Source: Escherichia coli (lineage in GTDB: Bacteria > Pseudomonadota > Gammaproteobacteria > Enterobacterales > Enterobacteriaceae). From it: a stretch of 64,000 nt of DNA. Shown one piece after another: positions 9,963 through 59,182 of this stretch. The notes beneath the pieces are model-generated. The model made no database searches and had not been told where the DNA came from. It worked only from the letters and a program-made list of their open reading frames with translations. Each line of letters begins with the position of its first letter. Positions within the stretch are counted from its first letter, which is position 1. The stretch is from the NCBI RefSeq assembly GCF_044647545.1, contig NZ_CP172818.1; one strand, written 5' to 3'. Position numbers and translations under genes: made by a program.

Positions 9963-9982
9963 CAGAACCATCGCCTCTCTGT

Positions 9983-10007
9983 GGTCCCGGTCATCATGAC
10001 CGGGACC
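9983..10007. repeat. Near-perfect palindrome ggtcccggtcat c atgaccgggacc immediately downstream of flu
   Basis: Read from sequence; 12-bp arms; no T-run follows. Confidence 0.6.
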
Positions 10008-10082
10008 CGGACCGGCGCAACGGATCTTCAACGCCACATTCGCTGGCATTAACAATAACATGATATTCATCACGGAGTGACT

Positions 10083-11615: not shown

Positions 11616-12058
11616 CGCCCGGCGAGCGCAGTCTCATTCAGCGGGCCCTGAAAACCCTGGACCGCCATCTTCATGAACCCGGCGTGCCCTTCACCTCCAC
11701 CCGTGCGGCACGGGAATGGCTGATTCTGAACATGGCGGGACTGGAGCGTGAAGAATTCCGGGTGCTGTATCTGAATAACCAGAATCAGCTGATTGCCGGT
11801 GAAACCCTCTTCACCGGCACCATCAACCGCACGGAAGTCCATCCCCGGGAAGTGATTAAACGCGCCCTGTATCACAATGCCGCTGCCGTGGTGCTGGCAC
11901 ACAATCACCCGTCCGGTGAAGTCACACCCAGCAAGGCAGACTGCCTTATCACGGAACGTCTGGTACAGGCACTGGGCCTGGTGGATATCCGGGTGCCGGA
12001 CCATCTGATAGTCGGTGGCAACCAGGTTTTCTCCTTTGCCGAACATGGTCTGCTTTAA
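11612..12058 (+). CDS. yeeS: RadC-like JAB-domain protein, 148 aa
   Basis: Contains the JAMM-like segment VVLAHNHPSGEVTPSKAD; CP4-44 synteny. Confidence 0.85.
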   Translation: MTPGERSLIQRALKTLDRHLHEPGVPFTSTRAAREWLILNMAGLEREEFRVLYLNNQNQLIAGETLFTGTINRTEVHPREVIKRALYHNAAAVVLAHNHPSGEVTPSKADCLITERLVQALGLVDIRVPDHLIVGGNQVFSFAEHGLL

Positions 12059-12120
12059 CCCGTCACAACCACATCACACCTGTTTTCACTTTTATCTTCT
12101 GTCTTCAGAGGTATCCCACT

Positions 12121-12342
12121 ATGAAAATTATCACCCGTGGCGAAGCCATGCGTATTCACCGTCAGCATCCGGCATCCCGTCTTTTTCCGTTCTGTACCGG
12201 CAAATACCGCTGGCACGGCAGTGCTGAAGCTTATACCGGTCGTGAAGTGCAGGATATTCCCGGTGTGCTGGCCGTGTTTGCCGAACGCCGTAAGGACAGT
12301 TTTGGTCCGTATGTCCGGCTGATGAGCGTCACCCTGAACTGA
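12121..12342 (+). CDS. yeeT: DUF987-family small protein, 73 aa
   Basis: MKIITRGEAMRIHRQHPASRLFPFCTGKYRWHG...; position between yeeS and cbeA. Confidence 0.8.
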   Translation: MKIITRGEAMRIHRQHPASRLFPFCTGKYRWHGSAEAYTGREVQDIPGVLAVFAERRKDSFGPYVRLMSVTLN

Positions 12343-12416
12343 AAGTGGGAATTCTGCTCATCAGAATTATCACCACTACCGAACCATTCTTACCGATTTT
12401 CTGTAAGGATTTTATC

Positions 12417-12785
12417 GTGTCAGACACACTCTCCGGGACAACACATCCCGACGACAATCACGACCACCCCTGGTGGGGACTACCCTGCACCGTGACGCCC
12501 TGTTTCGGCGCCCGTCTGGTGCAGGAGGGTAACCGCTTGCATTACCTTGCCGACCGCGCCGGTAACAGAGGCCTGTTCAGCGATGCAGATGCGTACCCCC
12601 TGGACCAGGCCTTTCCGCTGCTGATGAAACAACTGGAACTCATGCTCACCAGCGGTGAACTGAATCCCCGCCATCAGCATACCGTCACACTGTATGCGAA
12701 GGGGCTGACCTGTGAAGCTGACACCCTCGGCAGCTGTGGTTACGTTTATCTGGCTGTTTATCCGACGCCCGAAACGAAAAATTAA
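12417..12785 (+). CDS. cbeA: Type IV antitoxin CbeA (YeeU), 122 aa, GTG start
   Basis: VSDTLSGTTHPDDNHDHPWWGLPCTVTPCFGARLVQEGNRLHYLADRAG...; track ORF 12345..12785 trimmed to the GTG. Confidence 0.8.
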   Translation: MSDTLSGTTHPDDNHDHPWWGLPCTVTPCFGARLVQEGNRLHYLADRAGNRGLFSDADAYPLDQAFPLLMKQLELMLTSGELNPRHQHTVTLYAKGLTCEADTLGSCGYVYLAVYPTPETKN

Positions 12786-12873
12786 CCCACCGGAATAACC
12801 TTCTGCTCCGGCCTGGTGCTTTCACCACGCCACTTTTCCATTTTTATCTCTGCATATCAGGAAAATCTTCAGT

Positions 12874-13247
12874 ATGAAAACATTACCCGTATTACCCGGG
12901 CAGGCGGCGTTCTCGCCCGTCTCCTGTTACCATCTGGCAGATACTGCTCACCCGATTACTGGACCAGCACTACAGCCTTACGCTGAATGACACACCGTTC
13001 GCCGATGAACGCGTGATTGAGCAGCATATTGAGGCAGGCATTTCACTGTGTGATGCAGTGAACTTTCTCGTGGAAAAATACGTACTGGTACAACTGACCA
13101 GCCGGGATTCAGCGCCGGAACCCGTCTCAGTTAATCAACAGCATTGATATCCTCCGGGCTCGCCGGGCAACCGGTCTGATGACCCGCAGCAACTACAGAA
13201 CGGTAAATAACATTACCCTGGGTAAGTATCCGGAGGCGAAAAATGAA
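12874..13247 (+). pseudogene. cbtA: CbtA (YeeV)-like toxin gene with the reading frame split over three frames
   Basis: ATG at 12874 gives [12 protein letters not shown] then stops at 12988; CbtA-like residues [48 protein letters not shown] are in the +1 frame (stop 13145); [21 protein letters not shown]... is in the +2 frame. Confidence 0.6.
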
Positions 13248-13439
13248 ATGACGCTGGAAGCCGACAGCGTTAACGTACAGGCGCTGGATATGGGGCACAT
13301 TGTCGTTGACGTCGATGGTGTTAATCTCACTGAACTGATTAATAAAGCCGCTGAAAACGGTTATTCACTCCGCGTGGTGGATGACCGTGACACTACCGAA
13401 ACACCGGCAACTTCTGCCAGCCCTCATCAGTTGCCGTAA
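13248..13439 (+). CDS. yeeW: Small prophage protein YeeW-like (63 aa), here in frame with the last cbtA segment
   Basis: MTLEADSVNVQALDMGHIVVDVDGVNLTELINKAAENGYSLRVVDDRDTTETPATSASPHQLP; part of track ORF 13179..13439. Confidence 0.5.
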   Translation: MTLEADSVNVQALDMGHIVVDVDGVNLTELINKAAENGYSLRVVDDRDTTETPATSASPHQLP

Positions 13440-13604
13440 GACAATACAGTGATACAGAGTATAATGCCATTAGCCACAGAAAAAAAAAAAAACAGCACTG
13501 TTGTCCTGTATTAAACAGGCAAGAGAAGATATCCATACCCTGCGCCATCTGCAGCTTCTGCACCAGAACCGGTGAATCTCACTCAACAGACTTCATTTCC
13601 CCTG

Positions 13605-13636
13605 ACGCCAGCCTGAATACAGCTGGCGTTTTCATT
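13605..13636 (+). terminator. Intrinsic terminator (acgccagc ctgaatac agctggcgt tttcattt) downstream of yeeW
   Basis: GC-rich stem followed by a T-rich run. Confidence 0.6.
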
Positions 13637-13733
13637 TATATACAGAAAGGAAAACCGATAATAATGGAATGGACGCCCCGACCATGAAGCAACGGTAGGA
13701 TATTACTGATAAACCTTCCAGTGGAGGTGCGTT

Positions 13734-13814
13734 ATGGCCGTTTTAACGATTAGCATTGACCTGACAAAAAATGAATTCCAAATCCACGGTCTGGGTAGGA
13801 ACAGAAAAATCTAA
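13734..13814 (+). pseudogene. 26-codon remnant resembling the N-terminus of an IS110-family transposase
   Basis: MAVLTISIDLTKNEFQIHGLGRNRKI then stop; the ISIDLTK pattern resembles the IGIDxAK start of IS110-type transposases; weak. Confidence 0.25.
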
Positions 13815-13889
13815 GCTCAGAAAACGGATTAAAGTAAGCGTCAACGGAGCACCATATTGACGCTTATTTATTGGTGAGAACTACGTTCC

Positions 13890-14246
13890 ATGGCAGGAGT
13901 TCGTCAACACGGTTGGAGGGCCATTCCGGCAGTATGCTCAGAATATGGCGCAGATACGCTTCCGGATCGATACCGTTCAGACGGCAGGTGCCTGCTTTTC
14001 CGGCAACAAGCAGGAATCTCAGCGCTGAAGCAGGAATTAGAGGTAAAAACGCCCTACCGGGCCATGAATCACCCGGTCATTGGAGTAGTAACCAAAGCAG
14101 ATTTAGCCAGCATGGAACAAATATCTTTGGTGAAATGTTGGTTACGGGAAGCTGGAGCGCACAACGTGTTAGTAACCAGTGCGGTTAATAACAATGGAGT
14201 TACAGAACTTTTTGCCTTGCTGCATACAGAAGAAGGCTGCCGCTAA
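13890..14246 (+). pseudogene. yoeF: C-terminal fragment of an EutP/PduV-family small GTPase
   Basis: ...NHPVIGVVTKADLASMEQISLVKCWLREAGAHNVLVTSAVNNNGVTELFALLHTEE; no P-loop upstream; upstream part of the track ORF is unlikely to be native. Confidence 0.45.
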
Positions 14247-14346
14247 TTTCGATAGGTTCTCAGATGAGAATGATGACGGTGATACACAGATAAGAATCAA
14301 TGAGCAATGAGGGTTGCCGGGCAACCCTCATTGAATAAAACAGGAA

Positions 14347-14676
14347 TTACTTCGCTTCGCCGTTTTTCATTTCGCCCATAGCTTTCAGCTTTTTGGAGAT
14401 ATCGCGGCGTTCTTTGGAGAGCTCGGCATTTTTGATGATGTAATCGTCAACGCGATCTTCATAGTCACCTTTCATGCTGGCGATGATGCCCTGGATTGCT
14501 TCAACGCTCATCCCTGGCTTGATGTAATCGCTCAGGTTGTCCAGCAACAGGACGCGCTTCTGGTTGTCACGGATCTTTTTCTCAACGTCCTGAATTTCAC
14601 GTTGCAGTTTGTTCTTACGACGGAACAGACGAACAAATTCCAGTACGTCCTGGAATGAAGGCTTGGTAGTTTCCAT
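14347..14676 (-). CDS. yeeX: UPF0265/DUF496 protein YeeX, 109 aa
   Basis: [41 protein letters not shown]...; track ORF trimmed to the internal ATG. Confidence 0.85.
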
Positions 14677-14847
14677 TTTTATACCCCTGATAATGTGAGA
14701 GTCGGATTCGTTTAAGCAACCGCTATTCGATAGGGCCAACATTACTCATAGCTGCCGCAGATGACAATGCTTTTATCCCTTTTCACTATCATACCCTTTA
14801 TCCTTGCTGAATCGAAGCAGCAGCAAGATGATTCTGAAGTTCAGGAA

Positions 14848-15906
14848 TTATTTGCGCAAGGCCCGGCAAATCAGATTCGATAGCAACTCAAGCTGATGCG
14901 CCGTTTCCATGTTCAGCCACACATAACCATAGATTGGTGTTTCCACAACCTTCAGGTCATGGTGGTTATTAAGCAACAGACGCAGCTCTTCCACAGCATC
15001 GTTCAATTTTTCCGTATTGGCAAAAACCGGCTGCGGATTACCTTCGTACAGCGCATGAACAAGGCTCAGCAGTATTTGCTGCATCATGTGCTGGGTATCA
15101 CGAAGTTTTTGCGCGTTCAATAACACGAAATGGCTGGGGCGCGTGGCCCAGTATGCATTGATTTGCAACTCCAGCATACAAACCAGATTGCGGTTAATGG
15201 TCTGGATACCTTCATATATCGATTTTGGAATACGGGTTTCTTTGCTGGCGGGCGCAATCAGCCCACGCATTTTCACGGCATCGGTCAGCAGTTTTTGTAG
15301 ATGGCTTTCCAGACGTGGGCGTTCGAGTAAGTTCGGTGAGAATGCAGATTGATAGACCCGATTATACTCGGTCAGACTTTTCGCCAGTTGAATGCGCCAG
15401 TGGATGAACGCCCGTTGTGGCCAGATACCGGTAAACAACATTGCCAGTAAAGAGCCGAGGATCACATCGCCGCTTCGCCATAACGCCGTATCAATTTCAC
15501 CTGTCGGGGAACCCACAACAATTGCCAGCGTCACCCCAATCAATAATCCTTGATACGGTTTCTTGCCCAGCGCCAGCCAACCGCAAAGAAACATCGCCGC
15601 CGCGCACCAGACTAACATCAGCGGTAACGAAATTAACTCCAGTTGCAGAGCGATAAGACCTAAAATCGAACCCAACACCGTACCGCCAATACGTTCGAAG
15701 GCACGAGGGACAACGTTCCCCCAGAACGAGATTGGCCCCATAATCACCACCATGGTGACCAGCGGCCAGGTGCTTTCCGGGATAGTAAACAGGCGGATAA
15801 TGAGAAAAGTGAGCAGGAATGCCAGCGCGACCCGAGTACCATGCACAATGCGGTAATGGCGGTATACCCGGATTTCAAACGGGCTTAATGACTTATCGGC
15901 ACGCAC
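14848..15906 (-). CDS. yeeA: Inner-membrane protein YeeA (FUSC-like putative transporter), 352 aa
   Basis: Multi-pass hydrophobic N-terminal half; size and synteny. Confidence 0.85.
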   Translation of the reverse strand: MRADKSLSPFEIRVYRHYRIVHGTRVALAFLLTFLIIRLFTIPESTWPLVTMVVIMGPISFWGNVVPRAFERIGGTVLGSILGLIALQLELISLPLMLVWCAAAMFLCGWLALGKKPYQGLLIGVTLAIVVGSPTGEIDTALWRSGDVILGSLLAMLFTGIWPQRAFIHWRIQLAKSLTEYNRVYQSAFSPNLLERPRLESHLQKLLTDAVKMRGLIAPASKETRIPKSIYEGIQTINRNLVCMLELQINAYWATRPSHFVLLNAQKLRDTQHMMQQILLSLVHALYEGNPQPVFANTEKLNDAVEELRLLLNNHHDLKVVETPIYGYVWLNMETAHQLELLSNLICRALRK

Positions 15907-16103
15907 GCAGAAACTCCGTAATGAAGATTAAAAGCGCTCATAACACATCTGTCGGCCAGAAGGCGCGCCTCTGAGTTATCCGACGGACATACCGGGAACA
16001 GTGTAATTTCCCGGCAGGAGCGAAAAATTTGAAAGGCGCATCTTACTCTTTTCGCTTTCAAAAAAAGAGTGGTCTTCGCGTCAACACACCGCCCTGAGAT
16101 GAA

Positions 16104-16577
16104 TTAGTGATGTTTTGGCTGCACCGCAACATACATTTCGATATCCCAGTACCCATCTTCCGCGCCATTGTTCAAGTAAACCTCGAAGCAGGGCTTTGGT
16201 AACATTTCATAGGCACTGTCCTGCAAGAGGCTATTAAAGAACTGATACCAGGGTTTAGCAAAATCATCACCGACTACACGAGCCACCGCCACCGCATACT
16301 GACCACCTGAAATTTCTGTCAGAATGACGCCCTCACTGTTTTCGGGGAGCGTAAAGTTATTCGGCACCGTCACGACGGTGTCGCAGCGTAATTTTTCGGC
16401 GGGTGTTTCATCTGGATTGTCGTAATAGACAGCAACCCACTCCTTCGGCACAATATTTTTGCTATCTATCCACATCATCAACTGCTCAAAGCCTTTCTTT
16501 ACCGTCTGTTCCCACGGGCCAACGAGATGGAAACCTGCAACGGTACGTTTATCTTCCTGCTTAATCTCGTAGTTCAT
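16104..16577 (-). CDS. sbmC: DNA gyrase inhibitor SbmC (GyrI), 157 aa
   Basis: [41 protein letters not shown]...; LexA box upstream. Confidence 0.9.
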
Positions 16578-16591
16578 GACGCCCCCATTAA

Positions 16592-16611
16592 TACTGTTTT
16601 TATATACAGTA
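16592..16611 (-). promoter_or_regulatory. LexA (SOS) box tactgtttttatatacagta upstream of sbmC
   Basis: Perfect CTGT-N8-ACAG palindrome 15 bp upstream of the sbmC start. Confidence 0.75.
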
Positions 16612-16695
16612 TAGTTGCAATATTAAAACCACAAGGAATGAGTGTTGATTATGCGAGCAGACTCGCACTCCTGCCAGTCTGCTGCAAAAGAAAGG

Positions 16696-17862
16696 TCAGG
16701 CCTTATGGTGGAAATAATCACTCAGCCGGGAAAACATGCTGCCTTCCCCGACAGATTCCAGGGTAACCAGCGGCCAGTGCGCCACCTGTTTATCACGGTC
16801 GTAAAGTTCAATTTCCCCTACCCGCTGATGGGCGCTAATTGGCGCGGTGAGTTCTTTACCATCAAGGGTATATTTGGCTTTGATATGTGGAATTTCGGCT
16901 TTCGGTAGCACCATCCAGAACTCTTGTTCCGTTCCCAGGGCGATATTTTCTTTATCGCCATACCAGATGCGTTCCGTACCAACCTTTTTCCCACGGTGCA
17001 AAATTTGCACCGTAGTAAAGTTTTGTTGACCCCAACGCAGTAATTTTCTTGCCTCTTCCTCACGACCTTTTGCGCTGTCAGCCCCCATTACCACTGCAAT
17101 GAGACGACGCTGCCCATCTACAGCCGAAGCAATGAGATTAAACCCGGCACCAGAAGTATGACCCGTTTTCAGGCCGTCAACATTCATGGTTTTATCCCAC
17201 AATAACCCGTTACGGTTTTGCTGGGTGATACCGTTCCAGGTGAGGCTTTTCTCACTGTACATATGATAAAACTCGGGCTCGCCGTGGATGATAGCGCGAG
17301 AAAGCACAGCTAAATCATAAGCCGAGCTATGCTGGCCAGGTGCATCCAGACCATGCACTGTTTCAAAATGCGTATCCTTGAGATGCAGCTTCTCGGCATA
17401 GTTGTTCATCATTTCAACAAACTGCCGTTGCCCACCGGCAATATAGTCAGCCAGTGCAACACAAGCGTCATTTCCGGAATCCACAATTAAACCACGGCTT
17501 AAATCACGTACCGATACGCGATCGCCCTCTTTCAAAAACATCAGTGAAGAACCGACAAACACCGGATTATCTTTCGCCCACGCATCACGCCCCACGGTGA
17601 CAATATCGTCTGGCGTAATGCGATGACTATCGATAGCACGATCCACGACATAGCCCGTCATCAGCTTTGTCAGGCTGGCGGGATTGCGCTGTTGATGCTC
17701 ATTACCCGCGGTGAGAATCTGACCGGTGGTGTAATCCATCAATACCCAGGACCCGGCATGAATCTCTGGAGGCTGAGGTGAAAAAGGAATGTTTTCCGCC
17801 GCAAAACCAGACGATAAATTAAAAACGAACAAAGAAGCAGCAATAATAAGACGGCGTTTCAA
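16696..17862 (-). CDS. dacD: D-alanyl-D-alanine carboxypeptidase DacD (PBP6b), 388 aa, probable TTG start
   Basis: SxxK motif PASLTKLMT, SGN motif DSGND; signal peptide; start uncertain by two codons. Confidence 0.88.
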   Translation of the reverse strand: MKRRLIIAASLFVFNLSSGFAAENIPFSPQPPEIHAGSWVLMDYTTGQILTAGNEHQQRNPASLTKLMTGYVVDRAIDSHRITPDDIVTVGRDAWAKDNPVFVGSSLMFLKEGDRVSVRDLSRGLIVDSGNDACVALADYIAGGQRQFVEMMNNYAEKLHLKDTHFETVHGLDAPGQHSSAYDLAVLSRAIIHGEPEFYHMYSEKSLTWNGITQQNRNGLLWDKTMNVDGLKTGHTSGAGFNLIASAVDGQRRLIAVVMGADSAKGREEEARKLLRWGQQNFTTVQILHRGKKVGTERIWYGDKENIALGTEQEFWMVLPKAEIPHIKAKYTLDGKELTAPISAHQRVGEIELYDRDKQVAHWPLVTLESVGEGSMFSRLSDYFHHKA

Positions 17863-18070
17863 CAGCAAACCCTCAGGTGTTTCAAATAGCTGTTCTTTTT
17901 ACGGAAATACTTATGAACTGGCTGGAATAAAGTGCAAGAAAATGTGACTACTATCTCATTTTTATCTGACATGATCTGTTGCCACTCGCTGCCAAATTGT
18001 CGCGCTAAAGCTGATTAGCACGGTGATATTTGATACTCTGGCAGACAGCAGAAATAACGGATTTAACCTA

Positions 18071-19498
18071 ATGATGAATGACGGTAAGCAACAACCTACC
18101 TTTTTCTTTCACGATTACGAAACCTTTGGAACGCACCCCGCGTTAGATCGCCCTGCACAGTTCGCAGCCATTCGCACTGATAACGAATTCAATGTCATCG
18201 GCGAACCCGAAGTCTTTTACTGCAAGCCCGCGGATGACTATTTACCCCAGCCTGGAGCAGTATTAATTACCGGTATTACCCCGCAGGAAGCACGGGCGAA
18301 AGGAGAAAACGAAGCCGCGTTTGCCGCCCGTATTCACTCGCTTTTTACCGTACCGAAGACCTGTATTCTGGGCTACAACAATGTGCGTTTCGACGATGAA
18401 GTCACACGCAACGTTTTTTATCGTAATTTCTACGATCCTTACGCCTGGAGCTGGCAGCATGATAACTCGCGCTGGGATTTACTGGATGTTATGCGTGCCT
18501 GTTATGCCCTGCGCCCGGAAGGAATAAACTGGCCTGAAAATGATGACGGTCTACCGAGCTTTCGCCTTGAGCATTTAACCAAAGCGAATGGTATTGAACA
18601 TAGCAACGCCCACGATGCGATGGCTGATGTGTACGCCACTATTGCGATGGCGAAACTGGTAAAAACGCGTCAGCCACGCCTGTTTGATTATCTCTTTACC
18701 CATCGTAATAAACACAAACTGATGGCGTTGATTGATGTTCCGCAGATGAAACCCCTGGTTCACGTTTCCGGAATGTTTGGGGCATGGCGTGGCAATACCA
18801 GCTGGGTGGCACCGCTGGCGTGGCATCCTGAAAATCGCAATGCCGTAATTATGGTGGATTTGGCAGGAGACATTTCACCATTACTGGAGCTGGATAGCGA
18901 CACATTGCGCGAGCGTTTATATACCGCAAAAGCCGATCTTGGCGATAACGCCGCCGTTCCGGTTAAGCTGGTGCATATCAATAAATGTCCGGTACTGGCC
19001 CAGGCGAATACGCTACGCCCGGAAGACGCTGAGCGTTTAGGGATTGCTCGTCAACACTGCCTGGATAACCTGAAAGTGTTGCGCGAAAACCCGCAAGTAC
19101 GCGACAAAGTTGTGGCAATTTTTGCAGAAGCTGAACCGTTTACACCATCAGATAATGTAGATGCACAGCTTTATAATGGCTTTTTTAGCGACGCCGATCG
19201 TGCAGCAATGAAAATCGTGCTGGAGACTGAACCGCGTAATTTACCGGCTCTGGATATCACCTTTGTTGATAAGCGTATCGAGAAACTCCTGTTCAACTAC
19301 CGCGCCCGCAACTTCCCCGGCACGTTAGATGACAACGAGCAGCAACGCTGGCTTGAGCACCGCCGCCAGGTCTTCACACCCGAGTTTTTACAAGGCTATG
19401 CAGAAGAGATTCAGATGCTGGCGCAGCTGTATGCCGACGATAAAGAAAAAGTGGCGCTGTTAAAAGCGCTTTGGCAGTACGCGGAAGAGATTGTCTAA
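18071..19498 (+). CDS. sbcB: Exodeoxyribonuclease I, 475 aa
   Basis: MMNDGKQQPTFFFHDYETFG... DEDD exonuclease motifs; track ORF trimmed to the internal ATG. Confidence 0.9.
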   Translation: MMNDGKQQPTFFFHDYETFGTHPALDRPAQFAAIRTDNEFNVIGEPEVFYCKPADDYLPQPGAVLITGITPQEARAKGENEAAFAARIHSLFTVPKTCILGYNNVRFDDEVTRNVFYRNFYDPYAWSWQHDNSRWDLLDVMRACYALRPEGINWPENDDGLPSFRLEHLTKANGIEHSNAHDAMADVYATIAMAKLVKTRQPRLFDYLFTHRNKHKLMALIDVPQMKPLVHVSGMFGAWRGNTSWVAPLAWHPENRNAVIMVDLAGDISPLLELDSDTLRERLYTAKADLGDNAAVPVKLVHINKCPVLAQANTLRPEDAERLGIARQHCLDNLKVLRENPQVRDKVVAIFAEAEPFTPSDNVDAQLYNGFFSDADRAAMKIVLETEPRNLPALDITFVDKRIEKLLFNYRARNFPGTLDDNEQQRWLEHRRQVFTPEFLQGYAEEIQMLAQLYADDKEKVALLKALWQYAEEIV

Positions 19499-19505
19499 TG
19501 TGAAG

Positions 19506-19537
19506 CCTCCGCCGCTGGTACGGCGGAGGACAATTTT
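19506..19537 (+). terminator. Hairpin cctccgccg ctggta cggcggagg followed by a T-rich run, between convergent sbcB and yeeD
   Basis: Read from sequence. Confidence 0.55.
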
Positions 19538-19540
19538 GAG

Positions 19541-19768
19541 TCAGGCTTTTTGAACGGTGATGCTCCACGCTGCATCGCCAATCTGCTGATAATCGGTGAT
19601 GGCATGTCCTTCTTCTGCCGCCCACTGTGGGATTGCTTCAGTTGCCTGGGTGCAATCAAACTCAATTACCAACTCATCGCCGCTGGCCATTTCTGCCAGT
19701 GCTGCTTTTGCTTCTATGAGTGGAAACGGACAGACCTGCGTCACCACATCCAGCTTTTTAATCGCCAT
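19541..19768 (-). CDS. yeeD: TusA-like sulfur-carrier protein YeeD, 75 aa
   Basis: CPFP motif in MAIKKLDVVTQVCPFPLIEAKAALAEMASGDELVI. Confidence 0.88.
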   Translation of the reverse strand: MAIKKLDVVTQVCPFPLIEAKAALAEMASGDELVIEFDCTQATEAIPQWAAEEGHAITDYQQIGDAAWSITVQKA

Positions 19769-19781
19769 CTTTACACCTTAC

Positions 19782-20840
19782 TTAATTTGCCGCAGCAGTT
19801 GCCAGTCGCGCCTTACGCTGCGGTCGAACATACACAAGCCAGGACGCAGTCCAGACTCCGAGAATCATAAATACAAGGCCAATCCAGCCCTGCCAGGTCA
19901 TCATTGCAGTCATGACCAGTCCATTACCGATAGAGCAACCACCTGCAATGCTGGCACCGAAGCCCATCAGTACACCACCTAACCCGCTACGTAATGTTGT
20001 TTGTGCATCAGCAGCGCGAACGCGGAACTCACGGCTCGCTTTGGCGGCAATAAATGACCCCACGAAGCTCCCTAACACCAGGAAAACGCCCCAGTTAATG
20101 TATTTCACGTCACCCGCGACCAGAAATTGCAGAATATTGGCCGTTGGGGAAGTGATGCCTAACCCAAACATACGTCCGGTTGCTTCACTCAGGGGCCAGG
20201 CTAAAAGCGCAATCAAACCGATGAGTACAGCTGTGACAAAGGGATGCCAGCGTTTTTCAAACAGAATATGAGCGATCCCGGTTCGGCGCGGCGGTAAGGT
20301 CGCGACTTTGAGTTTTGGCTTCTTCAACTCTTTCATCACCACCCAGAGCGTTATCACCAGCAAAACGGCAACCAACGGCCACACAGACAAATTAAAAGTA
20401 TCAGCAATAGAGTTATGTTCAGTAGTGTAGTGCTGCAAGGTTTGATTTAAACCACTGGCGTGTGGAGAACGCATCACCGCACTCATCACCATATAAGTGA
20501 AAAGCGCGATCCAACTGCCGATCAATCCCTCACCCGCGCGATACCAGGTCCCGGTGGCACATCCACCCGCCAGAACAATTCCCAGCCCGAAAAGATACCC
20601 ACCTATAACAGTACCAAGCCACGGGAACGCCCCGGCTTCGTAAGTCAGTAGGCCCGCCTGAATTAACGCAAAAACCCCCACGCTTTGTACCGAAATTGCA
20701 ATCAGCAAGGCGTAAAACATGCGATTATTTTTCGCGACATACATATCGCGAAAACCACCTGTCAGGCAAAAACGCCCACGCTGCATGACAAATCCCAGCA
20801 GAGCACCACAAATTAGCCCGCTTAATATCATTGAAAACAT
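19782..20840 (-). CDS. yeeE: YeeE/YedE-family membrane transporter (thiosulfate uptake), 352 aa
   Basis: Polytopic membrane protein directly upstream of yeeD. Confidence 0.88.
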   Translation of the reverse strand: MFSMILSGLICGALLGFVMQRGRFCLTGGFRDMYVAKNNRMFYALLIAISVQSVGVFALIQAGLLTYEAGAFPWLGTVIGGYLFGLGIVLAGGCATGTWYRAGEGLIGSWIALFTYMVMSAVMRSPHASGLNQTLQHYTTEHNSIADTFNLSVWPLVAVLLVITLWVVMKELKKPKLKVATLPPRRTGIAHILFEKRWHPFVTAVLIGLIALLAWPLSEATGRMFGLGITSPTANILQFLVAGDVKYINWGVFLVLGSFVGSFIAAKASREFRVRAADAQTTLRSGLGGVLMGFGASIAGGCSIGNGLVMTAMMTWQGWIGLVFMILGVWTASWLVYVRPQRKARLATAAAN

Positions 20841-21018
20841 AAATTAATTAACCAGATGAATGTTAATAAGGAAATTATTCATGACTGGTGGAATGCAGAC
20901 CAATAACCAAATTCTCTAAATTAGAACAAATGGTTATTAATGAGGATTTCGATAAAAAAGAATAAAAAAACCGGAGCCAAATATTCATTCGACTCCGGTT
21001 GATTATTAGAAAAGATGA

Positions 21019-22377
21019 TTATGCTACGTCTTCGTACTGCGGAACCGGGTTACGGAAGCTCTTGGTTACGCATGCCAGGTAAATCAGACCGATAGCAGCC
21101 CAGATCAGACCCAGAACCATTGAGCTTTCTTCCAGGTTAACCCACAGCGCACCAACGGTCAGCGCACCACACATCGGCAGGAACAGATACTGGAAGTGAT
21201 CTTTCAGCGTCTTGTTACGCTTCTCACGGATCCAGAACTGCGAGATGACCGACAGGTTAACGAAGGTGAACGCCACCAACGCACCAAAGTTAATCAGCGC
21301 CGTTGCCATTACCAGGTCAAAGTTGATTGCCAGCAGGGCAATCGCGCCAACCAGGATGATATTCATCGCCGGAGTACGCCATTTCGGGTGTACATAACCG
21401 AAGAAGCTTTTCGGGAACACGCCGTCACGACCCATTACGTACATCAGACGCGCAACGCCTGCGTGCGCCGCCATACCGGACGCCAGTACGGTAATGGTGG
21501 AGAAGATCAGCGCGCCAACCTGGAACGCTTTACCCGCAACGTACAGCATGATTTCAGGCTGTGACGCATCCGGATCTTTAAAGCGAGAGATATCCGGGAA
21601 GTACAGCTGCAGGAAGTAAGTTGCAAAGATGAAGATCATGCCGCCAATCAGCGCGGTCAGGAAAATCGCACGCGGGATCACGCGCTCTGCATCTTTGGTT
21701 TCTTCCGACAGGTTGCTGATGCCGTCAAAGCCGGTAAAGGAGAAGCACAGGATTGTCGCCCCGGTAATCATCGGGATAACATGCGCATCGCCAGACCAGA
21801 ACGGACGAGTGCTCGCCAGCGTACCCGCTCCTTCACCTTCAAATACGCCATAAACAACCATGCCCAGGATCACCGCGATCAGCACTACCTGCAACACGAC
21901 GATTACAGTGTTGAAGTTCGCTACGGATTTCAGACTACGCAGGTTAAAGGCGGTCATAAAGGCCACCAGCGCCACCACAAACATCCACGATGGAATGGAA
22001 GGCACCAGAGCTTCAAAATAGATTTTCGCCAGCAGAATGTTGATCATCGGCGCGAACAGATAGTCGAGCAGAGAAGACCAACCCACCATAAAGCCGACAG
22101 TCGGGCTAATGGATTTCTGGGCGTAAGTGTATGCAGAGCCAGCAGAAGGATAGCGGCGGACCAGCTTCCCGTAGCTCAGAGCCGTAAACAGGATCGCAAT
22201 CAATGCGAACGCATAGGCTGTCGGCACATGACCATCCGTGAGGCCTGAAACGATACCAAAAGTATCAAACAGCGTCATCGGCTGCATATAGGCAAGACCC
22301 ATCATTACAACCGGAACTAACGTAAGCGTTTTACGCAATTCCACGCGAGAGGTGTTTGGAGTAACGTTATGCGACAT
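21019..22377 (-). CDS. plaP: Putrescine importer PlaP (APC family), 452 aa
   Basis: [33 protein letters not shown]...; 12 predicted TM helices. Confidence 0.88.
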
Positions 22378-22643
22378 GGTCATTCTCCTTTACGGTGATA
22401 ACCGTCGCGTAAGCAAAAAATTGCCCCATTTTTTTGGATTCCTCAGCGACAACAACTGTCGATTTTTAGTAAATATCTATCCGGTACGAAGCCCGGCCTC
22501 TTGGTATGAATGATTGGTTTGAAGCAAAAAATAACCGACGCTGATGAAACGTCGGTTTTTAGTCATTTTTTGACAGCGGCGCATTGTGCCTAAATGGGGG
22601 GGAAATGACAAGAGAATGAGAGGCTTGTCATAATAATTTTTCT

Positions 22644-23573
22644 TTAAATGGCTGATTTTCCGTCATCAGATTTTGCATAAACACCGGCGATCGCACTATT
22701 TGCTAAAATTTCATCCCGCCACCAGCCGCTGGCAAGCCCTGCGGTCTGTTCATTCCAGCCAATCCAGACGGGTTCAAAGAGAGTTTGGGCGACCACTTTC
22801 TTCTCGATTAACGCGCCACTATCGAGAAAACGTTGCGCCAGATAACGGGGTAAATAGCCGCAGCCGAGGCCGCTAATTTGCAGCTCCAGCTTGGTTTTAA
22901 AATCGAAAACGGTAATGGCTTCTTGTTCGTCGAGAAGTTGTGAGGCCGTAGAAGCGCCTGCCTGCGCAGTGTCCCCCACCACAATCGCCCGATATCGCTT
23001 AATGATACGACGGTTTAACGGCTCTTCTTCCTGGGCTAACGGATGATGAGGCGCGACCGCAAAGACTTGTTCCAGATCGCCCAACCGCGAGAAACCAAAT
23101 TCACTGGAAGATGGTGGCTCATGCATCGCGCCAACAATAATATCCGCTCGCCCCTGAGTCAGGGCATCCCAGGAACCACCGAGTACGCCATTGATAAACT
23201 TCAGGCGCGTCACGCTATGATGTTGATAAAAAGCTTCAATCAGTGGCGCAAGCAGAGAAAAAGGAAACGTGTCGTCCACGCCAATCACCAGCTCGTTTTC
23301 CCAGCCTTCATGCAGTTTGATCGCCTGCTTTTCCAGTTCCCGCACGGTATGCAGAACTTCCCGCCCTTTCTCTAATAACATTTTTCCGGTGCGGGTGAAT
23401 TTAGCGCGGTGACCGCTACGATCAAGCAATTGAATATTAAGGTCGCTTTCCAGCTTGTGAACGGTGTAACTCAGAGCGGACGGCGTCTTGTAGAGTTTGG
23501 CCGACGCCGCCGCAAAACTGCCTTCTTTTTCTAAGGCATCGAGGATCATCAACACATCCAGCAGTGGTTTCAT
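22644..23573 (-). CDS. yeeY: LysR-family transcriptional regulator YeeY, 309 aa
   Basis: N-terminal HTH MKPLLDVLMILDALEKEGSFAAASAKLYKTPSALSYTVHKLE. Confidence 0.88.
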   Translation of the reverse strand: MKPLLDVLMILDALEKEGSFAAASAKLYKTPSALSYTVHKLESDLNIQLLDRSGHRAKFTRTGKMLLEKGREVLHTVRELEKQAIKLHEGWENELVIGVDDTFPFSLLAPLIEAFYQHHSVTRLKFINGVLGGSWDALTQGRADIIVGAMHEPPSSSEFGFSRLGDLEQVFAVAPHHPLAQEEEPLNRRIIKRYRAIVVGDTAQAGASTASQLLDEQEAITVFDFKTKLELQISGLGCGYLPRYLAQRFLDSGALIEKKVVAQTLFEPVWIGWNEQTAGLASGWWRDEILANSAIAGVYAKSDDGKSAI

Positions 23574-23618
23574 ACACGCCCCCTTGCAGTGCATGCGGCG
23601 TCCTGCTGGCGTGATCGT

Positions 23619-24443
23619 TTACTCCAGCGGCATTACCAGCGGATCGGGATACTGGTATTCAAACCCCAGTTCATTACAAATCCGACTGCCATCAATAATC
23701 TTACCTTTGCCGCTGTCCAGACTATTTCTGAACTGCGGAGGTTCCAGCCCCAGTAAACGGGCCATCTGCGGATAGAAAACATTACGCGCAGGGTGAGCTG
23801 GCGCACATATATTATAGATGTGTCCGCCTTTAGGTGCCTGTAACAACAGAGTGATAGCGCCAATAACATCTTCTAAATGGACTAAATTAACACCATGTTC
23901 ACCATCAGGCGCGGTTTTTCCGGCAAAGAAGCGTCCGGGATGACGTCCCGGTCCGACAAGGCCCGCAAGACGCAGAATATCGACCGAAGTACCGGGTAAA
24001 TTGTGCAGCCAGTCTTCGAGTTCTTCTAATACTCTTCCACTGTTGGTTACCGGATTACGCGGGGTAGTTTCTTTCACCGTGCCTTGCGCGTCGCCATAGA
24101 CAGACGTTGAGCTGGTGAAAATAATGCGGGGAATACGATGAGCCAGCGCGCTATCCACTAACTCTTGTACCGCTTGTAAATAGAACTCATCGCCGGGGCC
24201 GCTACGACGTGCCGGAAGCGTAATGACCAGCGCATCGGCATCCATCAGGGCATCCAGATCGTCAGAATCGCAAACTAACTCAGGCTCCATGCGAAGCAGA
24301 TAGCTATCAATGCCACTCATTCGGGCCGCTTCGACACCATCTTGTGTGGTTTTACTCCCGGTGACTTGCCAGCCTCGCGCTGAAAGTGACATCGCCAGCG
24401 GCATGCCTAACCACCCTAACCCGACAATTGCGACCTTTTTCAT
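23619..24443 (-). CDS. yeeZ: NAD(P)-binding epimerase/dehydratase-like protein YeeZ, 274 aa
   Basis: Rossmann motif MKKVAIVGLGWLGMPLAMSL. Confidence 0.88.
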   Translation of the reverse strand: MKKVAIVGLGWLGMPLAMSLSARGWQVTGSKTTQDGVEAARMSGIDSYLLRMEPELVCDSDDLDALMDADALVITLPARRSGPGDEFYLQAVQELVDSALAHRIPRIIFTSSTSVYGDAQGTVKETTPRNPVTNSGRVLEELEDWLHNLPGTSVDILRLAGLVGPGRHPGRFFAGKTAPDGEHGVNLVHLEDVIGAITLLLQAPKGGHIYNICAPAHPARNVFYPQMARLLGLEPPQFRNSLDSGKGKIIDGSRICNELGFEYQYPDPLVMPLE

Positions 24444-24593
24444 CCGTTATCTCCTGATACACCTAAGATCTATAAGGCTACGCTAGCGTATCAAAACTGA
24501 CAATTCATTCTATGAATGAGACGTTCATACCACACAAGAAAATTATGAGAGAAAGATCAATATTGAACTTTACCAACATTTGTAGACCAGATA

Positions 24594-24626
24594 AGGCATT
24601 CACGCCGCATCCGGCAGGAACCAAAG
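24594..24626 (-). repeat. REP (repetitive extragenic palindromic) element
   Basis: Reverse complement cctgccggatgcggcgtgaatgccttatctg matches the REP consensus. Confidence 0.7.
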
Positions 24627-24794
24627 CCCACTTTAGTTACAGAACACAATGTTCTTGAGGGTTTTAAAGACATATTTTCACGATTTCTTTTCTAACGTAG
24701 TCAAAACCACCTAACGCCAGTCACTCCAGGCCCCCTCCTTTCCCCGCTCATTCATTAAACAAATCCATTGCCATAAAATATATAAAAAAGCCCT

Positions 24795-24823
24795 TGCTTT
24801 CTAACGTGAAAGTGGTTTAGGTT
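24795..24823 (+). promoter_or_regulatory. his operon promoter candidate: -35 ttgctt (24795-24800), 17-bp spacer, -10 taggtt (24818-24823)
   Basis: Hexamers and spacing read from sequence about 40 bp upstream of hisL. Confidence 0.45.
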
Positions 24824-24861
24824 AAAAGACATCAGTTGAATAAACATTCACAGAGACTTTT

Positions 24862-24912
24862 ATGACACGCGTTCAATTTAAACACCACCATCATCACCAT
24901 CATCCTGACTAG
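24862..24912 (+). CDS. hisL: his operon leader peptide (16 aa, seven consecutive His codons)
   Basis: atgacacgcgttcaatttaaacaccaccatcatcaccatcatcctgactag = MTRVQFKHHHHHHHPD. Confidence 0.97.
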   Translation: MTRVQFKHHHHHHHPD

Positions 24913-24975
24913 TCTTTCAGGCGATGTGTGCTGGAAGACATTCAGATCTTCCAGTGGTGCATGAACGCATGAGAA

Positions 24976-25012
24976 AGCCCCCGGAAGATCACCTTCCGGG
25001 GGCTTTTTTATT
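24976..25012 (+). terminator. his attenuator terminator (agcccccggaag atcac cttccgggggct tttttatt)
   Basis: Perfect 12-bp GC-rich stem followed by a T-run between hisL and hisG. Confidence 0.9.
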
Positions 25013-25057
25013 GCGCGGTTGATAACGGTTCAGACAGGTTTAAAGAGGAATAACAAA

Positions 25058-25957
25058 ATGACAGACAACACTCGTTTACGCATAGCTATGCAGAAATCCG
25101 GCCGTTTAAGTGATGATTCACGCGAATTGCTGGCGCGCTGTGGCATTAAAATCAATCTTCACACCCAGCGCCTGATCGCGATGGCAGAAAACATGCCGAT
25201 TGATATTCTGCGCGTGCGTGACGACGACATTCCCGGTCTGGTAATGGATGGCGTGGTAGACCTTGGGATTATCGGCGAAAACGTGCTGGAAGAAGAGCTG
25301 CTTAACCGCCGCGCCCAGGGTGAAGATCCGCGCTACTTTACCCTGCGTCGTCTGGATTTTGGCGGCTGCCGACTTTCACTGGCAACGCCGGTTGATGAAG
25401 CCTGGGACGGCCCGCTCTCCTTAAACGGTAAACGTATCGCCACCTCTTATCCTCACCTGCTCAAGCGTTATCTCGACCAGAAAGGCATCTCTTTTAAATC
25501 CTGCTTACTGAACGGTTCTGTTGAAGTCGCCCCGCGTGCCGGACTGGCGGATGCGATTTGCGATCTGGTTTCCACCGGTGCCACGCTGGAAGCAAACGGC
25601 CTGCGCGAAGTCGAAGTTATCTACCGCTCGAAAGCTTGCCTGATCCAACGCGATGGCGAAATGGAAGAATCCAAACAGCAACTGATCGACAAACTGCTGA
25701 CCCGTATTCAGGGTGTGATCCAGGCGCGCGAATCAAAATACATCATGATGCACGCACCGACCGAACGTCTGGATGAAGTCATCGCCCTGCTGCCAGGTGC
25801 CGAACGCCCAACTATTCTGCCGCTGGCGGGTGATCAACAGCGCGTAGCGATGCACATGGTCAGCAGCGAAACCCTGTTCTGGGAAACCATGGAAAAACTG
25901 AAAGCGCTGGGTGCCAGTTCAATCCTGGTCCTGCCGATTGAGAAGATGATGGAGTGA
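25058..25957 (+). CDS. hisG: ATP phosphoribosyltransferase, 299 aa
   Basis: [31 protein letters not shown]; operon order. Confidence 0.95.
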
Positions 25958-25962
25958 TCGCC

Positions 25963-28333
<2,371 letters not shown>

Positions 28334-28334
<1 letters not shown>

Positions 28335-29400
28335 TGAGTCAGAAGTATCTTTTTATCGATCGCGATGGAACCCTGATTAGCGAACCGCCGAGTGATTTTC
28401 AGGTGGACCGTTTTGACAAACTCGCCTTTGAACCGGGCGTGATCCCGGAACTGCTGAAGCTGCAAAAAGCGGGCTACAAACTGGTGATGATCACTAATCA
28501 GGATGGTCTGGGAACACAAAGTTTCCCGCAGGCGGATTTTGATGGACCGCACAACCTGATGATGCAGATCTTCACCTCGCAAGGCGTGCAGTTTGATGAA
28601 GTGCTGATTTGTCCGCACCTGCCCGCAGATGAGTGCGACTGCCGTAAACCGAAAGTAAAACTGGTGGAGCGTTATCTCGCTGAGCAAGCGATGGATCGTG
28701 CCAACAGTTATGTGATTGGCGATCGCGCGACCGATATTCAACTGGCGGAAAACATGGGTATTAATGGTTTACGCTACGACCGCGAAACCCTGAACTGGCC
28801 GATGATTGGCGAGCAACTCACTAAACGAGACCGTTACGCCCACGTAGTGCGCAACACCAAAGAGACGCAAATTGACGTCCAGGTGTGGCTGGATCGTGAA
28901 GGTGGCAGCAAGATTAACACCGGCGTTGGCTTCTTTGATCACATGCTGGATCAGATCGCCACCCACGGCGGTTTCCGCATGGAAATCAACGTCAAAGGCG
29001 ACCTCTATATCGACGATCACCACACCGTCGAAGATACCGGCCTGGCGCTGGGCGAAGCGTTAAAAATTGCCCTCGGCGATAAACGCGGTATTTGTCGCTT
29101 TGGTTTTGTGCTGCCGATGGACGAATGCCTTGCCCGCTGCGCGCTGGATATCTCTGGTCGCCCGCACCTGGAATATAAAGCCGAATTTACCTACCAGCGC
29201 GTGGGCGATCTCAGCACTGAAATGATCGAGCACTTCTTCCGTTCGCTCTCTTACACTATGGGCGTGACGCTACACCTGAAAACCAAAGGTAAAAACGATC
29301 ATCACCGTGTAGAGAGCCTGTTCAAAGCCTTTGGTCGCACCCTGCGCCAGGCCATCCGCGTGGAAGGCGACACCCTGCCCTCGTCAAAAGGAGTGCTGTA

Positions 29401-29401
<1 letters not shown>
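28334..29401 (+). CDS. hisB: Bifunctional histidinol-phosphatase / imidazoleglycerol-phosphate dehydratase, 355 aa
   Basis: [18 protein letters not shown] motif at N-terminus; dehydratase half at C-terminus. Confidence 0.95.
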
Positions 29402-31479
<2,078 letters not shown>

Positions 31480-31486
<7 letters not shown>

Positions 31487-32091
31487 CAGAACAACAACGT
31501 CGCGAACTGGACTGGGAAAAAACCGACGGACTTATGCCGGTGATTGTGCAACACGCGGTATCCGGCGAAGTGCTAATGCTGGGCTATATGAACCCGGAAG
31601 CCTTAGACAAAACCCTCGAAAGCGGCAAAGTCACCTTCTTCTCGCGCACTAAACAGCGACTGTGGACCAAAGGCGAAACGTCGGGCAATTTCCTCAACGT
31701 AGTGAGTATTGCCCCGGACTGCGACAACGACACGTTACTGGTGCTGGCGAATCCCATCGGGCCAACCTGCCACAAAGGCACCAGCAGCTGCTTCGGCGAC
31801 ACCGCTCACCAGTGGCTGTTCCTGTATCAACTGGAACAACTGCTCGCCGAACGTAAATCTGCCGACCCGGAAACCTCCTACACTGCCAAACTGTATGCCA
31901 GCGGCACCAAACGCATTGCGCAGAAAGTAGGCGAAGAAGGCGTGGAAACCGCGCTGGCCGCGACGGTACATGACCGCTTTGAGCTGACCAACGAGGCATC
32001 TGATTTGATGTATCACCTGCTGGTGTTGTTGCAGGATCAGGGGCTGGATTTAACGACGGTAATTGAGAACCTGCGTAAACGGCATCAGTGA
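31480..32091 (+). CDS. hisI: Phosphoribosyl-AMP cyclohydrolase / phosphoribosyl-ATP pyrophosphatase, 203 aa
   Basis: Last gene of the operon; bifunctional size. Confidence 0.95.
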
Positions 32092-32133
32092 GTTGCGGGG
32101 TAAGCGGATGCGATATTGTTGCCGCATCCGGCA

Positions 32134-32172
32134 AAAAAACGGGCAAGGTGTCACCACCCTGCCCTTTTTCTT
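32134..32172. terminator. Bidirectional intrinsic terminator between convergent hisI and wzzB (A-run, gggcaaggtg tcacc accctgccc, T-run)
   Basis: Hairpin flanked by an A-tract 5' and a T-tract 3'; a REP-like palindrome gcggatgcg..cgcatccg lies just upstream at 32106-32130. Confidence 0.75.
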
Positions 32173-32186
32173 TAAAACCGAAAAGA

Positions 32187-33167
32187 TTACTTCGCGTTGT
32201 AATTGCGTAGAGCATTACGCCCCAGCACAATCCCCGCGCCAACCATGCCACCCAGCAGCACCGCCAGAATCAAGGTAATTGCCTTTTTCGGGCTATCACG
32301 ACGAATAGGTAACGTCGGTTTCATTACATAGCGGTAAGCATGAATATCAAGATCATCAACCTTTAAGCTTTCGATATCAAACAGGTTTTGACGAGTCTGA
32401 TAGTAGTTTGGTGAGAACACCAACGGACGGGTCGCCTCATGCTTAATCATCGACTCCAGCGCTTCGCTCCCCAAAAGGAACAACGTATCTTGTGTGATAT
32501 CTTCGCCAGTCTGTTGAATCTGCGGTTTTGTCACCTGCGCCTGATTCGCATACTGCAACGCTTCCTGAATCTGACGGATACGCAGATCTTTCTGCTCCTG
32601 CGCAACCACTTCCTGCGTTCTTAAAGAGTCCTGCAAGTTTTTCCGTCCCAGAGCAATGTTGTCCTTGAGATCCTTTTCTAACTCTTGATTCACTTTATCG
32701 TCAACTTGCTGAATGTATTGGGCCAACTTCATTTGTGCGCCCTCTGCAGTTTGCCCAACATAAGAAACAGTCAATGGTAATTGCTGGTTCTTAACAGAAG
32801 GTTCGATGGTAAGTTTTTCTGGTTCTTCCTGATTATCCAGCGTTTCTGCTAATGCAGAGAAGGCAGAACTGAAGCGACCAATTAACGTCTCCTGCAAATC
32901 CGATACTTTCGGTGCAGCCTGACCATAGATAACATTCATGGCATTGTTATAGCCAGCAATTTGCCCCACATCGGGCTGAGTGATAATTGCTGTTGACGTC
33001 CATTTCTCCTTCGCTACTGCCAAATATCCAATAGCCAGGGCAATAGCCACAATGACGGAAATGATGATTGTCATCTTGCCACGCCACAACTGCACTAGTA
33101 AATCAATCAAATCAATCTGTTCCGGGTCATGGTTTTGCCCAGAAACATTATTATTTTCTACTCTCAT
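32187..33167 (-). CDS. wzzB: O-antigen chain-length determinant Wzz (Cld), 326 aa
   Basis: MRVENNNVSGQNHDPEQIDLIDLLVQLWRGK...; two TM segments flanking a coiled-coil periplasmic domain. Confidence 0.9.
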   Translation of the reverse strand: MRVENNNVSGQNHDPEQIDLIDLLVQLWRGKMTIIISVIVAIALAIGYLAVAKEKWTSTAIITQPDVGQIAGYNNAMNVIYGQAAPKVSDLQETLIGRFSSAFSALAETLDNQEEPEKLTIEPSVKNQQLPLTVSYVGQTAEGAQMKLAQYIQQVDDKVNQELEKDLKDNIALGRKNLQDSLRTQEVVAQEQKDLRIRQIQEALQYANQAQVTKPQIQQTGEDITQDTLFLLGSEALESMIKHEATRPLVFSPNYYQTRQNLFDIESLKVDDLDIHAYRYVMKPTLPIRRDSPKKAITLILAVLLGGMVGAGIVLGRNALRNYNAK

Positions 33168-33312
33168 CATTACCCTAACTGACGGAAATTTCCAAGTCCG
33201 CATAGTTTAGCGATAATCCTCATGAATGCTATAGGATAATTGATAAAAATAATGAATTGTTACGCAAGTAACAAAAGACAATCAGGGCGTAAATAGCCCT
33301 GATAACAGGATG

Positions 33313-34488
<1,176 letters not shown>

Positions 34489-34669
34489 TCAGAATTAACT
34501 TAACTGTGAATCATGATGTTTTTAGCATCCTGATAAGAGTTAAAAGTTTTAACGCTACGTTGTAAGATGGTCAACGCAACGAAAAACAATTCAGAATTTC
34601 TTTATAAGAATAGCTGATATTTATTAAGTTAATATTAAGCAGTGAAATTTAGTCTATAAGATAATTGGT

Positions 34670-34700
34670 AAAAAAAACCCGGCATAATATACGCCGGGCC
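34670..34700 (-). terminator. Intrinsic terminator downstream of gnd (cccggc ataatatac gccggg, T8 on the minus strand)
   Basis: Read from sequence. Confidence 0.7.
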
Positions 34701-34726
34701 TCAATTTTATTGTTGATTAAATCAGA

Positions 34727-48043: not shown

Positions 48044-48301
48044 CATGCATTCCTACGATGTGACGAGCGTTACCCACTCGCGCTTAACTCGAAAAATTCA
48101 AGCGCTAATTGTCTTACCAATCCGCTCTGGAAACAAGGAAAATCCTGGAAAACTTTGACTAAAATCCTATTGCTAAGTCGTTGTTATTCTGATTGTTTAT
48201 ATAAAACAACGGCAGGAAAATTCGCAACAAATTACTTTCGCCGCTAATCTTCACTGCCGTTATAATTTTCTTATCAACCGTTACATCCGGTCAGATTTTC
48301 A

Positions 48302-50764: not shown

Positions 50765-50774
50765 ACGTTCTCCT

Positions 50775-54822: not shown

Positions 54823-54823
54823 A

Positions 54824-59180: not shown

Positions 59181-59182
59181 AA

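Follow-up and report, generated by a model that had tools for sequence, protein, structure and literature searches.

The yeeZ–hisL spacer of an Escherichia coli sequence carries a REP-bearing segment, probably the older allele, at the site where K-12 carries yefM–yoeB

The ccdO157 module, located between folA and apaH, is a small toxin–antitoxin (TA) unit consisting of a promoter and two genes, which lies in a core-genome spacer and is present or absent according to lineage. In E. coli K-12, the yefM–yoeB module is located between the his operon and yeeZ with the spacing hisL-282-yefM and yoeB-82-yeeZ, and chromosomal TA modules of this kind have been described as horizontally moving promoter-plus-ORF units with which the downstream gene is probably co-transcribed (PMC5120126). 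O157 Sakai is reported to lack yoeB and yefM at this position (Iguchi et al. 2011, PMC3158064). The same study reports REPs in the yeeZ–hisL spacer, which is one of four REP-containing indel regions, and a 2023 survey found YoeB to be absent from ST11 (PMC10790755). The TA-less spacer is an ordinary, common polymorphism, and with its REPs in yeeZ–hisL it has already been published for Sakai (PMC3158064). Here we analyze this spacer in a 64,000-nt stretch of E. coli DNA from contig NZ_CP172818.1, referred to below as the window.

In the window, the yeeZ–hisL spacer spans 24444–24861 (418 bp), between the yeeZ start codon (24441–24443, complement) and the hisL ATG at 24862. The ORF list and start codon positions show no ORF of ≥60 aa in this interval. 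The longest ORF that touches it encodes 58 aa and lies mostly within yeeZ, followed by ORFs of 48, 39, 38 and 30 aa, and a simple consensus scan of the spacer found no promoter-like site. Non-coding throughout, the interval separates the divergent promoters of yeeZ and hisL and represents the TA-less form of this spacer, with a REP. Its features are collected in Table 1. In an alignment, the left flank is identical between the window and FDAARGOS_497 and has one mismatch to K-12, and spacer positions ~25–70 are partly conserved in Citrobacter, Trabulsiella and Kluyvera. On the right side, identity to K-12 starts at 24730/24731, and spacer positions 341–418 match in most of 75 other species; this last segment is presumed to be the his promoter region. 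Two pairs of short direct repeats connect the REP-allele cassette with the his promoter, one exact over 10 nt (TTTCTAACGT, 24689–24698 and 24798–24807) and the other formed by 24663–24673 and 24822–24832 (TTTAAAGACAT/TTAAAAGACAT). These repeats could be due to chance, or they may hint that part of the Escherichia-specific insert arose from a duplication of promoter sequence.

Table 1. Features of the yeeZ–hisL spacer and adjoining genes, in window coordinates
Feature	Coordinates	Strand	Remarks
yeeZ, SDR family oxidoreductase, 274 aa	23619..24443	-	ORF; RefSeq annotation agrees; DNA identical to locus L007 and the ECONIH1 lineage
Left flank adjoining yeeZ, common to all alleles	24444..24519		ends ...CTATGAATGA
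Variable cassette, 199 bp in the window	24520..24718		borders from alignment
Private 36 nt (GACGTTCATACCACACAAGAAAATTATGAGAGAAAG) in place of 62 nt with the first REP	24520..24555		
REP element, Y type; second REP of the usual pair	24582..24615	-	3 mismatches to consensus
Unique part of the REP allele, with ECONIH1/L007-subtype SNPs and an extra C at 24621	24616..24698		
Private 20-nt insertion (AGTCAAAACCACCTAACGCC) exactly on the right cassette border	24699..24718		
Escherichia-only right flank, common to TA and REP alleles	24719..24783		
Presumed his promoter region, conserved across Enterobacteriaceae	24784..24861	+	100% identical to K-12
hisL leader peptide (MTRVQFKHHHHHHHPD)	24862..24912	+	annotated in homologous loci
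His leader/attenuator RNA	24888..25011	+	Rfam RF00514, 131.6 bits vs gathering score 49
hisG	25058..25957	+	no amino-acid differences from K-12

Searches for yefM–yoeB gave negative results at both the protein and the DNA level. Comparison of K-12 YefM and YoeB with the whole window by tblastn returned chance matches only, the best of which (E = 0.10) lies inside hisD, with none in the spacer. When the 649-bp K-12 cassette was compared with the spacer by blastn (word size 7), the sole match was the 21-nt shared right flank. Thus, the spacer contains neither the arrangement of a yefM–yoeB type II TA module, in which a Phd/YefM antitoxin ORF lies directly upstream of a YoeB ORF, nor DNA homologous to the K-12 cassette with its promoter/operator. 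These results agree with the original prediction, made from the window sequence, that a 418-bp spacer without an ORF of ≥60 aa retains no YefM or YoeB remnant. The MG1655 order yeeZ–yoeB–yefM–hisL, which it named, is also correct, and the two findings that would have spoken against it, the same spacer in MG1655 and yefM/yoeB homology in the interval, were looked for and not encountered, the K-12 spacer being 867 bp in length. The absence of yefM–yoeB is real for the underlying isolate: REP-allele sequence stands in place of the K-12 cassette, and the flanks are those of the O1 lineage. Such a genome, which is without the YoeB mRNA interferase, would carry an allele that was never invaded, rather than having deleted the genes.

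When the window is aligned with K-12 and with two genomes that lack the TA unit, the left border of the variable segment falls directly after ...CTATGAATGA (window 24519/24520) and the right border directly before AGTCAC...GCCCCCTCC (window 24718/24719). Between these borders, K-12 contains 649 bp, composed of 6 nt, yoeB, yefM and about 140 bp of promoter/operator sequence, while other TA-less strains contain ~207 bp with two inverted REPs and the window contains 199 bp. The TA cassette and the REP cassette have no sequence in common, and no target-site duplication or direct repeats were seen to flank either of them. Because the flanks are common, the middles are unrelated and direct repeats are absent, the polymorphism is best described as a segment replacement and not as DNA inserted into, or deleted from, a site that is otherwise the same. 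The locus accordingly does not have the structure of a precise deletion or of the empty site of a mobile insertion. A precise loss of the module had been one of the two origins proposed for the spacer at the outset, with short direct repeats at the junction as the feature to look for. This proposal did not hold: K-12 minus its cassette would measure about 218 bp, whereas the window holds 199 bp of unrelated sequence instead, and the repeats that were sought are found next to neither version of the cassette.

For the same reasons, it is extremely improbable that yefM–yoeB was recently deleted, spontaneously or by engineering, from a K-12-type spacer. In favor of such an event there is no more than the lack of the genes and a surrounding gene order like that of K-12, whereas 143 of the 199 cassette bp share about 96% identity with the REP allele and show no relation to K-12, no TA remnants are present, and the flanks are of the ECONIH1 type and not of the K-12 type. 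An engineered deletion scar was considered separately and rejected, as inspection found no FRT-like sequence and the flanks are not those of K-12. At the right end of the K-12 cassette (locus L001, 2059–2081), the last 11 nt (GCTAAGAGGAC) and the flank next to them (GTCCTCTTAGC) are inverted complements of each other and form a perfect palindrome that spans the cassette/flank junction. This palindrome may be a trace of the route by which the cassette was inserted.

Both alleles are widespread. The complete E. coli genomes examined number 5,426, and 4,212 of them contain a full TA cassette, at 95.5–100% identity and on chromosomes only. The REP allele, counted where ≥80% of the window spacer was covered, is present in 1,192 of these genomes (22%), which include O157:H7, BL21/B strains and SMS-3-5; the best spacer identity among all 5,426 does not exceed 93.3%. 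Outgroups were sampled by a YeeZ scan of species-representative genomes, with one genome per species, and E. fergusonii was not among the recovered loci. A well conserved and colinear REP allele of 424–426 bp was found in E. coli E69, E. albertii, Escherichia sp. E1V33 and MOD1-EC7003. E. whittamii is the only one of the five Escherichia loci with yefM–yoeB and has a spacer of 866 bp. Its TA cassette is 96–98% identical to that of K-12, compared with about 94% in the flanks, which suggests a polymorphism shared across species or an interspecies transfer. The E. whittamii genes (locus L020, 4908–5407) occupy the same site as in K-12, with protein identities of 100% for YefM and 98.8% for YoeB. 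Outside the genus, all 75 species sampled have a spacer of 155–188 bp with neither TA nor REP, in which conservation is limited to the yeeZ-adjacent end and the his promoter end. Immediately right of the cassette, ~65 bp are Escherichia-specific, as they are present in both alleles and missing from the 155–188-bp spacers.

Because outgroup Escherichia, each represented by one genome per species, share the same REP allele at the same site and the 75 other species have neither element, the most economical reading is that the TA-less REP allele would be the older state. The TA cassette is also old, with up to 4.5% divergence within E. coli and the same site in E. whittamii, and hence this polarity rests on parsimony and on one genome per outgroup species. 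The second origin proposed at the outset, an ancestral empty site, is therefore half right: the allele appears ancestral, being found without TA genes in Escherichia outgroups, but the site is not empty, as 199 bp of unrelated DNA are present. In the sequence of events that we propose, an enterobacterial ancestor would have had a spacer of about 160–175 bp, to which the ancestor of the genus Escherichia would have added about 265 bp, the REP pair included. The TA unit would then have replaced the ~207 bp in part of E. coli and in E. whittamii, and would have spread by homologous recombination via its flanks. The 649-bp replacement, which took place without target duplication, would thus provide a clean example of the entry of chromosomal TA units into core-genome spacers.

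A REP element had been predicted in the spacer, and one is indeed present. However, it does not lie at 24594–24626, as first thought, but at the position given in Table 1 on the minus strand, such that the two intervals overlap by about 22 nt. The 34-nt Y-type consensus used to locate it gave 0 matches in 100 shuffles. The element is conserved in all Escherichia REP alleles compared. An Rfam scan of the spacer gave a weak, sub-threshold match to the REP-derived naRNA4 (19.9 bits), and the predicted hairpin has a minimum free energy of −4.9 kcal/mol (z = −0.88), with 41 of 200 shuffles folding as well. The usual TA-less allele contains two REPs in inverted orientation and is thus a BIME. The window, with a single REP, lacks the arrangement of at least two REPs in alternating orientation and separated by a short linker that characterizes a BIME.

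The single REP is one of several features by which the window's copy differs from every other TA-less genome. In the sequence around the spacer, the window matches locus L007 without a difference over 2,549 bp upstream, and downstream one site differs in 6.5 kb. Inside the cassette, the 62 nt with the first REP that all other TA-less genomes contain are replaced by 36 unrelated nt, the linker harbors small indels (an AT unit and C/G shifts) in addition to the extra C, and the 20-nt insertion begins with AGTCA, which occurs again directly after it. Both private strings fall exactly on the two cassette borders. The 36-nt string had no match in the 5,426 E. coli genomes, JGI metagenome contigs, plasmids, phages, 80 related species or the compared loci, and the 20-nt string had none in JGI metagenome contigs, the 80 related species or the compared loci. 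Because the retained centre of the cassette carries the SNPs of the ECONIH1/L007 subtype, the window copy can be taken to derive from this subtype and not from a deep lineage. A template switch from the inverted match between 24524–47 and 24645–68 was considered as a source of the new sequence and rejected, since the complementarity (71%) is no more than expected by chance.

On balance, the absence of the first REP, the shortening by 8 bp and the novel strings are probably artefacts, because they lie at the borders of the 649- versus 207-bp heterology and because the junctions of the window are imprecise elsewhere at such sites. The true spacer would then probably be the ordinary 426-bp form with two REPs. 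Two observations count against artefacts: no source of the two strings is offered by this reading, as their match to both parental cassettes under two scoring schemes is no better than that of shuffles, and smaller heterologies within the ECONIH1-like tracts are perfectly reproduced. With these points included, we have considerable confidence in the explanation as a whole, namely that the TA-less REP form is the older allele, was never invaded, and carries private features in the window that are most likely consensus artefacts.

We consider it unlikely that the 418-bp version is instead a genuine third allele, in which a private rearrangement, for example REP-associated breakage and repair, removed the first REP and altered both borders. 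REP/BIME sites are hot spots for indels. The presence of AGTCA both at the start of the 20-nt insertion and after it, as well as the AT and C-run changes, resembles slippage, and the remaining ECONIH1-like tracts are clean, with 0–2 differences per 11 kb, which shows that the sequence is not generally noisy. In addition, yeeZ–hisG is named among the REP-containing indel regions (PMC3158064). However, a third allele would require six or seven events within 200 bp in a background that is otherwise identical over >20 kb, and both novel strings, unmatched in the genomes, related species, plasmids, phages and metagenome contigs searched, would have to lie exactly at the borders of the K-12 heterology. 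Moreover, the window contains further imprecise junctions at K-12-specific insertions as well as a blended paralog (see below). That both borders were truly remodelled with such unmatched sequence seems to us quite improbable. If the 418-bp allele were true, its borders would be active points of exchange, and REP-associated breakage would allow short cassettes, among them the REP pair and the TA unit, to replace one another without target duplication.

The preference for artefacts at the cassette borders draws on the make-up of the window as a whole. The window is 100.0% identical to K-12 MG1655 at about 1500–5000, 6500–11500 and 36165–44911, and about 100% identical to the O1 strain ECONIH1 at 13641–36164 and 44910–64000. 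Outside the cassette, it differs from ECONIH1 at 2 positions in 13641–24519 and at 0 in 24719–36164. The K-12-identical tracts coincide exactly with places where ECONIH1 has non-homologous DNA. The tract at 36165–44911 comprises the O16 O-antigen cluster (wbbL::IS5 through wzx and most of rfbC), with the wbbL IS5 that is the insertion of laboratory-lineage K-12, and is bordered on both sides by sequence 100% identical to ECONIH1. The switches occur at the last homologous bases, one in an 8-bp TCACCGCG microhomology upstream of gnd (~36157–36164) and the other at ~44911 in rfbC. At 53325, in the wcaK–wzxC spacer, the 197-bp K-12 array of four REPs is missing, as in ECONIH1, and a private deletion of 1 nt, a base that ECONIH1 retains, falls exactly at the site of the array. 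At ~2656, between cobU and yoeA, the MG1655 IS5 is absent and so are 9 nt (GACTATGCA) of the empty site found in CDE6306, in flanks that are 100% K-12.

The region 12392–13475 (cbeA/cbtA/yeeW) is a further anomaly. Here 149 sites separate the syntenic copy of ECONIH1 from its paralog at 3.52 Mb, and the window follows one copy at 73 of these, the other at 75 and neither at 1, in 60 alternating runs where a random order would give ~77. Among about 12,700 copies in the 5,426 E. coli genomes, the best identity to this region is ≤93.3%. Such a blend is what results when paralogs are collapsed, or reads mixed, into one consensus, and not what a recombinant would show. A two-way blend of K-12 and ECONIH1 had been considered for 11600–13640 and was rejected in view of 105 sites at which both parents agree and the window differs; these sites were later explained by the blend with the ECONIH1 paralog. 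Taken together, the border-exact switches, the imprecise junctions and the site-by-site blend of paralogs make the window look like a K-12 reference into which data of an ECONIH1-like isolate were patched. The gene-position collection has no record of SbcB with either of two start choices; YeeR as called and three spacer ORFs are likewise unrecorded, and these proteins and ORFs fit the same reading. The HisD and Gnd proteins are too widespread to point to a single genome, and RfbC is shared with two other genomes, which are only 97.3–97.6% identical to the window over the shared region. Features unique to the window at borders between K-12 and non-K-12 sequence may thus be artefacts, and caution with this sequence is advised.

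The mosaic could also be viewed as a real hybrid, in which a K-12-like recipient acquired O1 DNA by conjugation or transduction and lost yefM–yoeB through a TA-less donor tract of at least 22 kb. Consistent with such an origin, K-12-identical accessory tracts alternate with ECONIH1-identical core tracts, the switches are located at heterology borders, where strand exchange would stop, and the IS5 junction is compatible with descent from the K-12 configuration. Yet within the 1.1 kb of cbeA/cbtA the sequence changes about 60 times from one ECONIH1 paralog to the other, a pattern for which no history of recombination accounts, RecA crossover within 8 bp of homology is improbable, and the SbcB variant and the spacer ORFs are nowhere on record. 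We therefore give a hybrid little credence and continue to favor the patched reference. E. coli B was rejected as a donor of the his–gnd tract, to which it is only 97.9% identical. A recoded or synthetic genome, suggested by colinearity with K-12 at ~97%, including the wbbL IS5, was rejected as well, the substitutions in the his operon being bidirectional and mostly synonymous and the divergence patchy.

Several other private or displaced sequences were noted in the window. Two non-synonymous changes in sbcB, at 18095 and 18106 (codons 9 and 12), result in S9P and L12F next to the HDYETF exonuclease motif, and a change at 52764 results in A170V at wcaK codon 170; in both cases the tract is otherwise identical to ECONIH1. 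A run of 13 A residues at 13480–13492, at the end of a CP4-44-like prophage, includes a 10-nt poly-A insertion that is absent from K-12 and ECONIH1. The segment 5963–6526 contains a yeeP-like GTPase pseudogene in K-12 context, between IS2 and flu, but its sequence is that of a GTPase gene located on another island in ECONIH1 (99.8% identity).

The functional consequences of the TA-less allele are likely to be small. As the window and K-12 do not differ in the his promoter region, hisL or the attenuator, his regulation should be unaffected. As there is no TA unit, yeeZ cannot be co-transcribed from a yefM promoter, and we infer that it must use its own promoter, with no read-through from yefM–yoeB. 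The strain lacks one of several redundant mRNA-interferase toxins, which matters little.

Comparison with the described systems places the locus among known forms of this spacer. With Sakai and other TA-less strains, the window shares the absence of yoeB/yefM, the presence of a spacer REP, the cassette borders and the right flank. However, these strains have a spacer of 425–426 bp with two inverted REPs, whereas the spacer of the window measures 418 bp and contains a single REP along with the two private strings. Compared with the K-12 yefM–yoeB locus (b2017/b4539), the site and both flanks (76 bp on the left and ~131 bp on the right), with the his promoter and hisL, are the same, but the window contains no YefM, YoeB or operator sequence, and unrelated non-coding DNA stands in place of the 649-bp unit. 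The window element resembles the REP/BIME elements of Enterobacteriaceae in its match to the Y-type consensus, but only one REP is retained and its hairpin is no more stable than those of shuffles. Finally, the yeeZ–hisL site resembles that of ccdO157 in that a TA unit is present in some lineages and missing from others, but its TA-less allele is an alternative, REP-bearing segment and not a short empty spacer.
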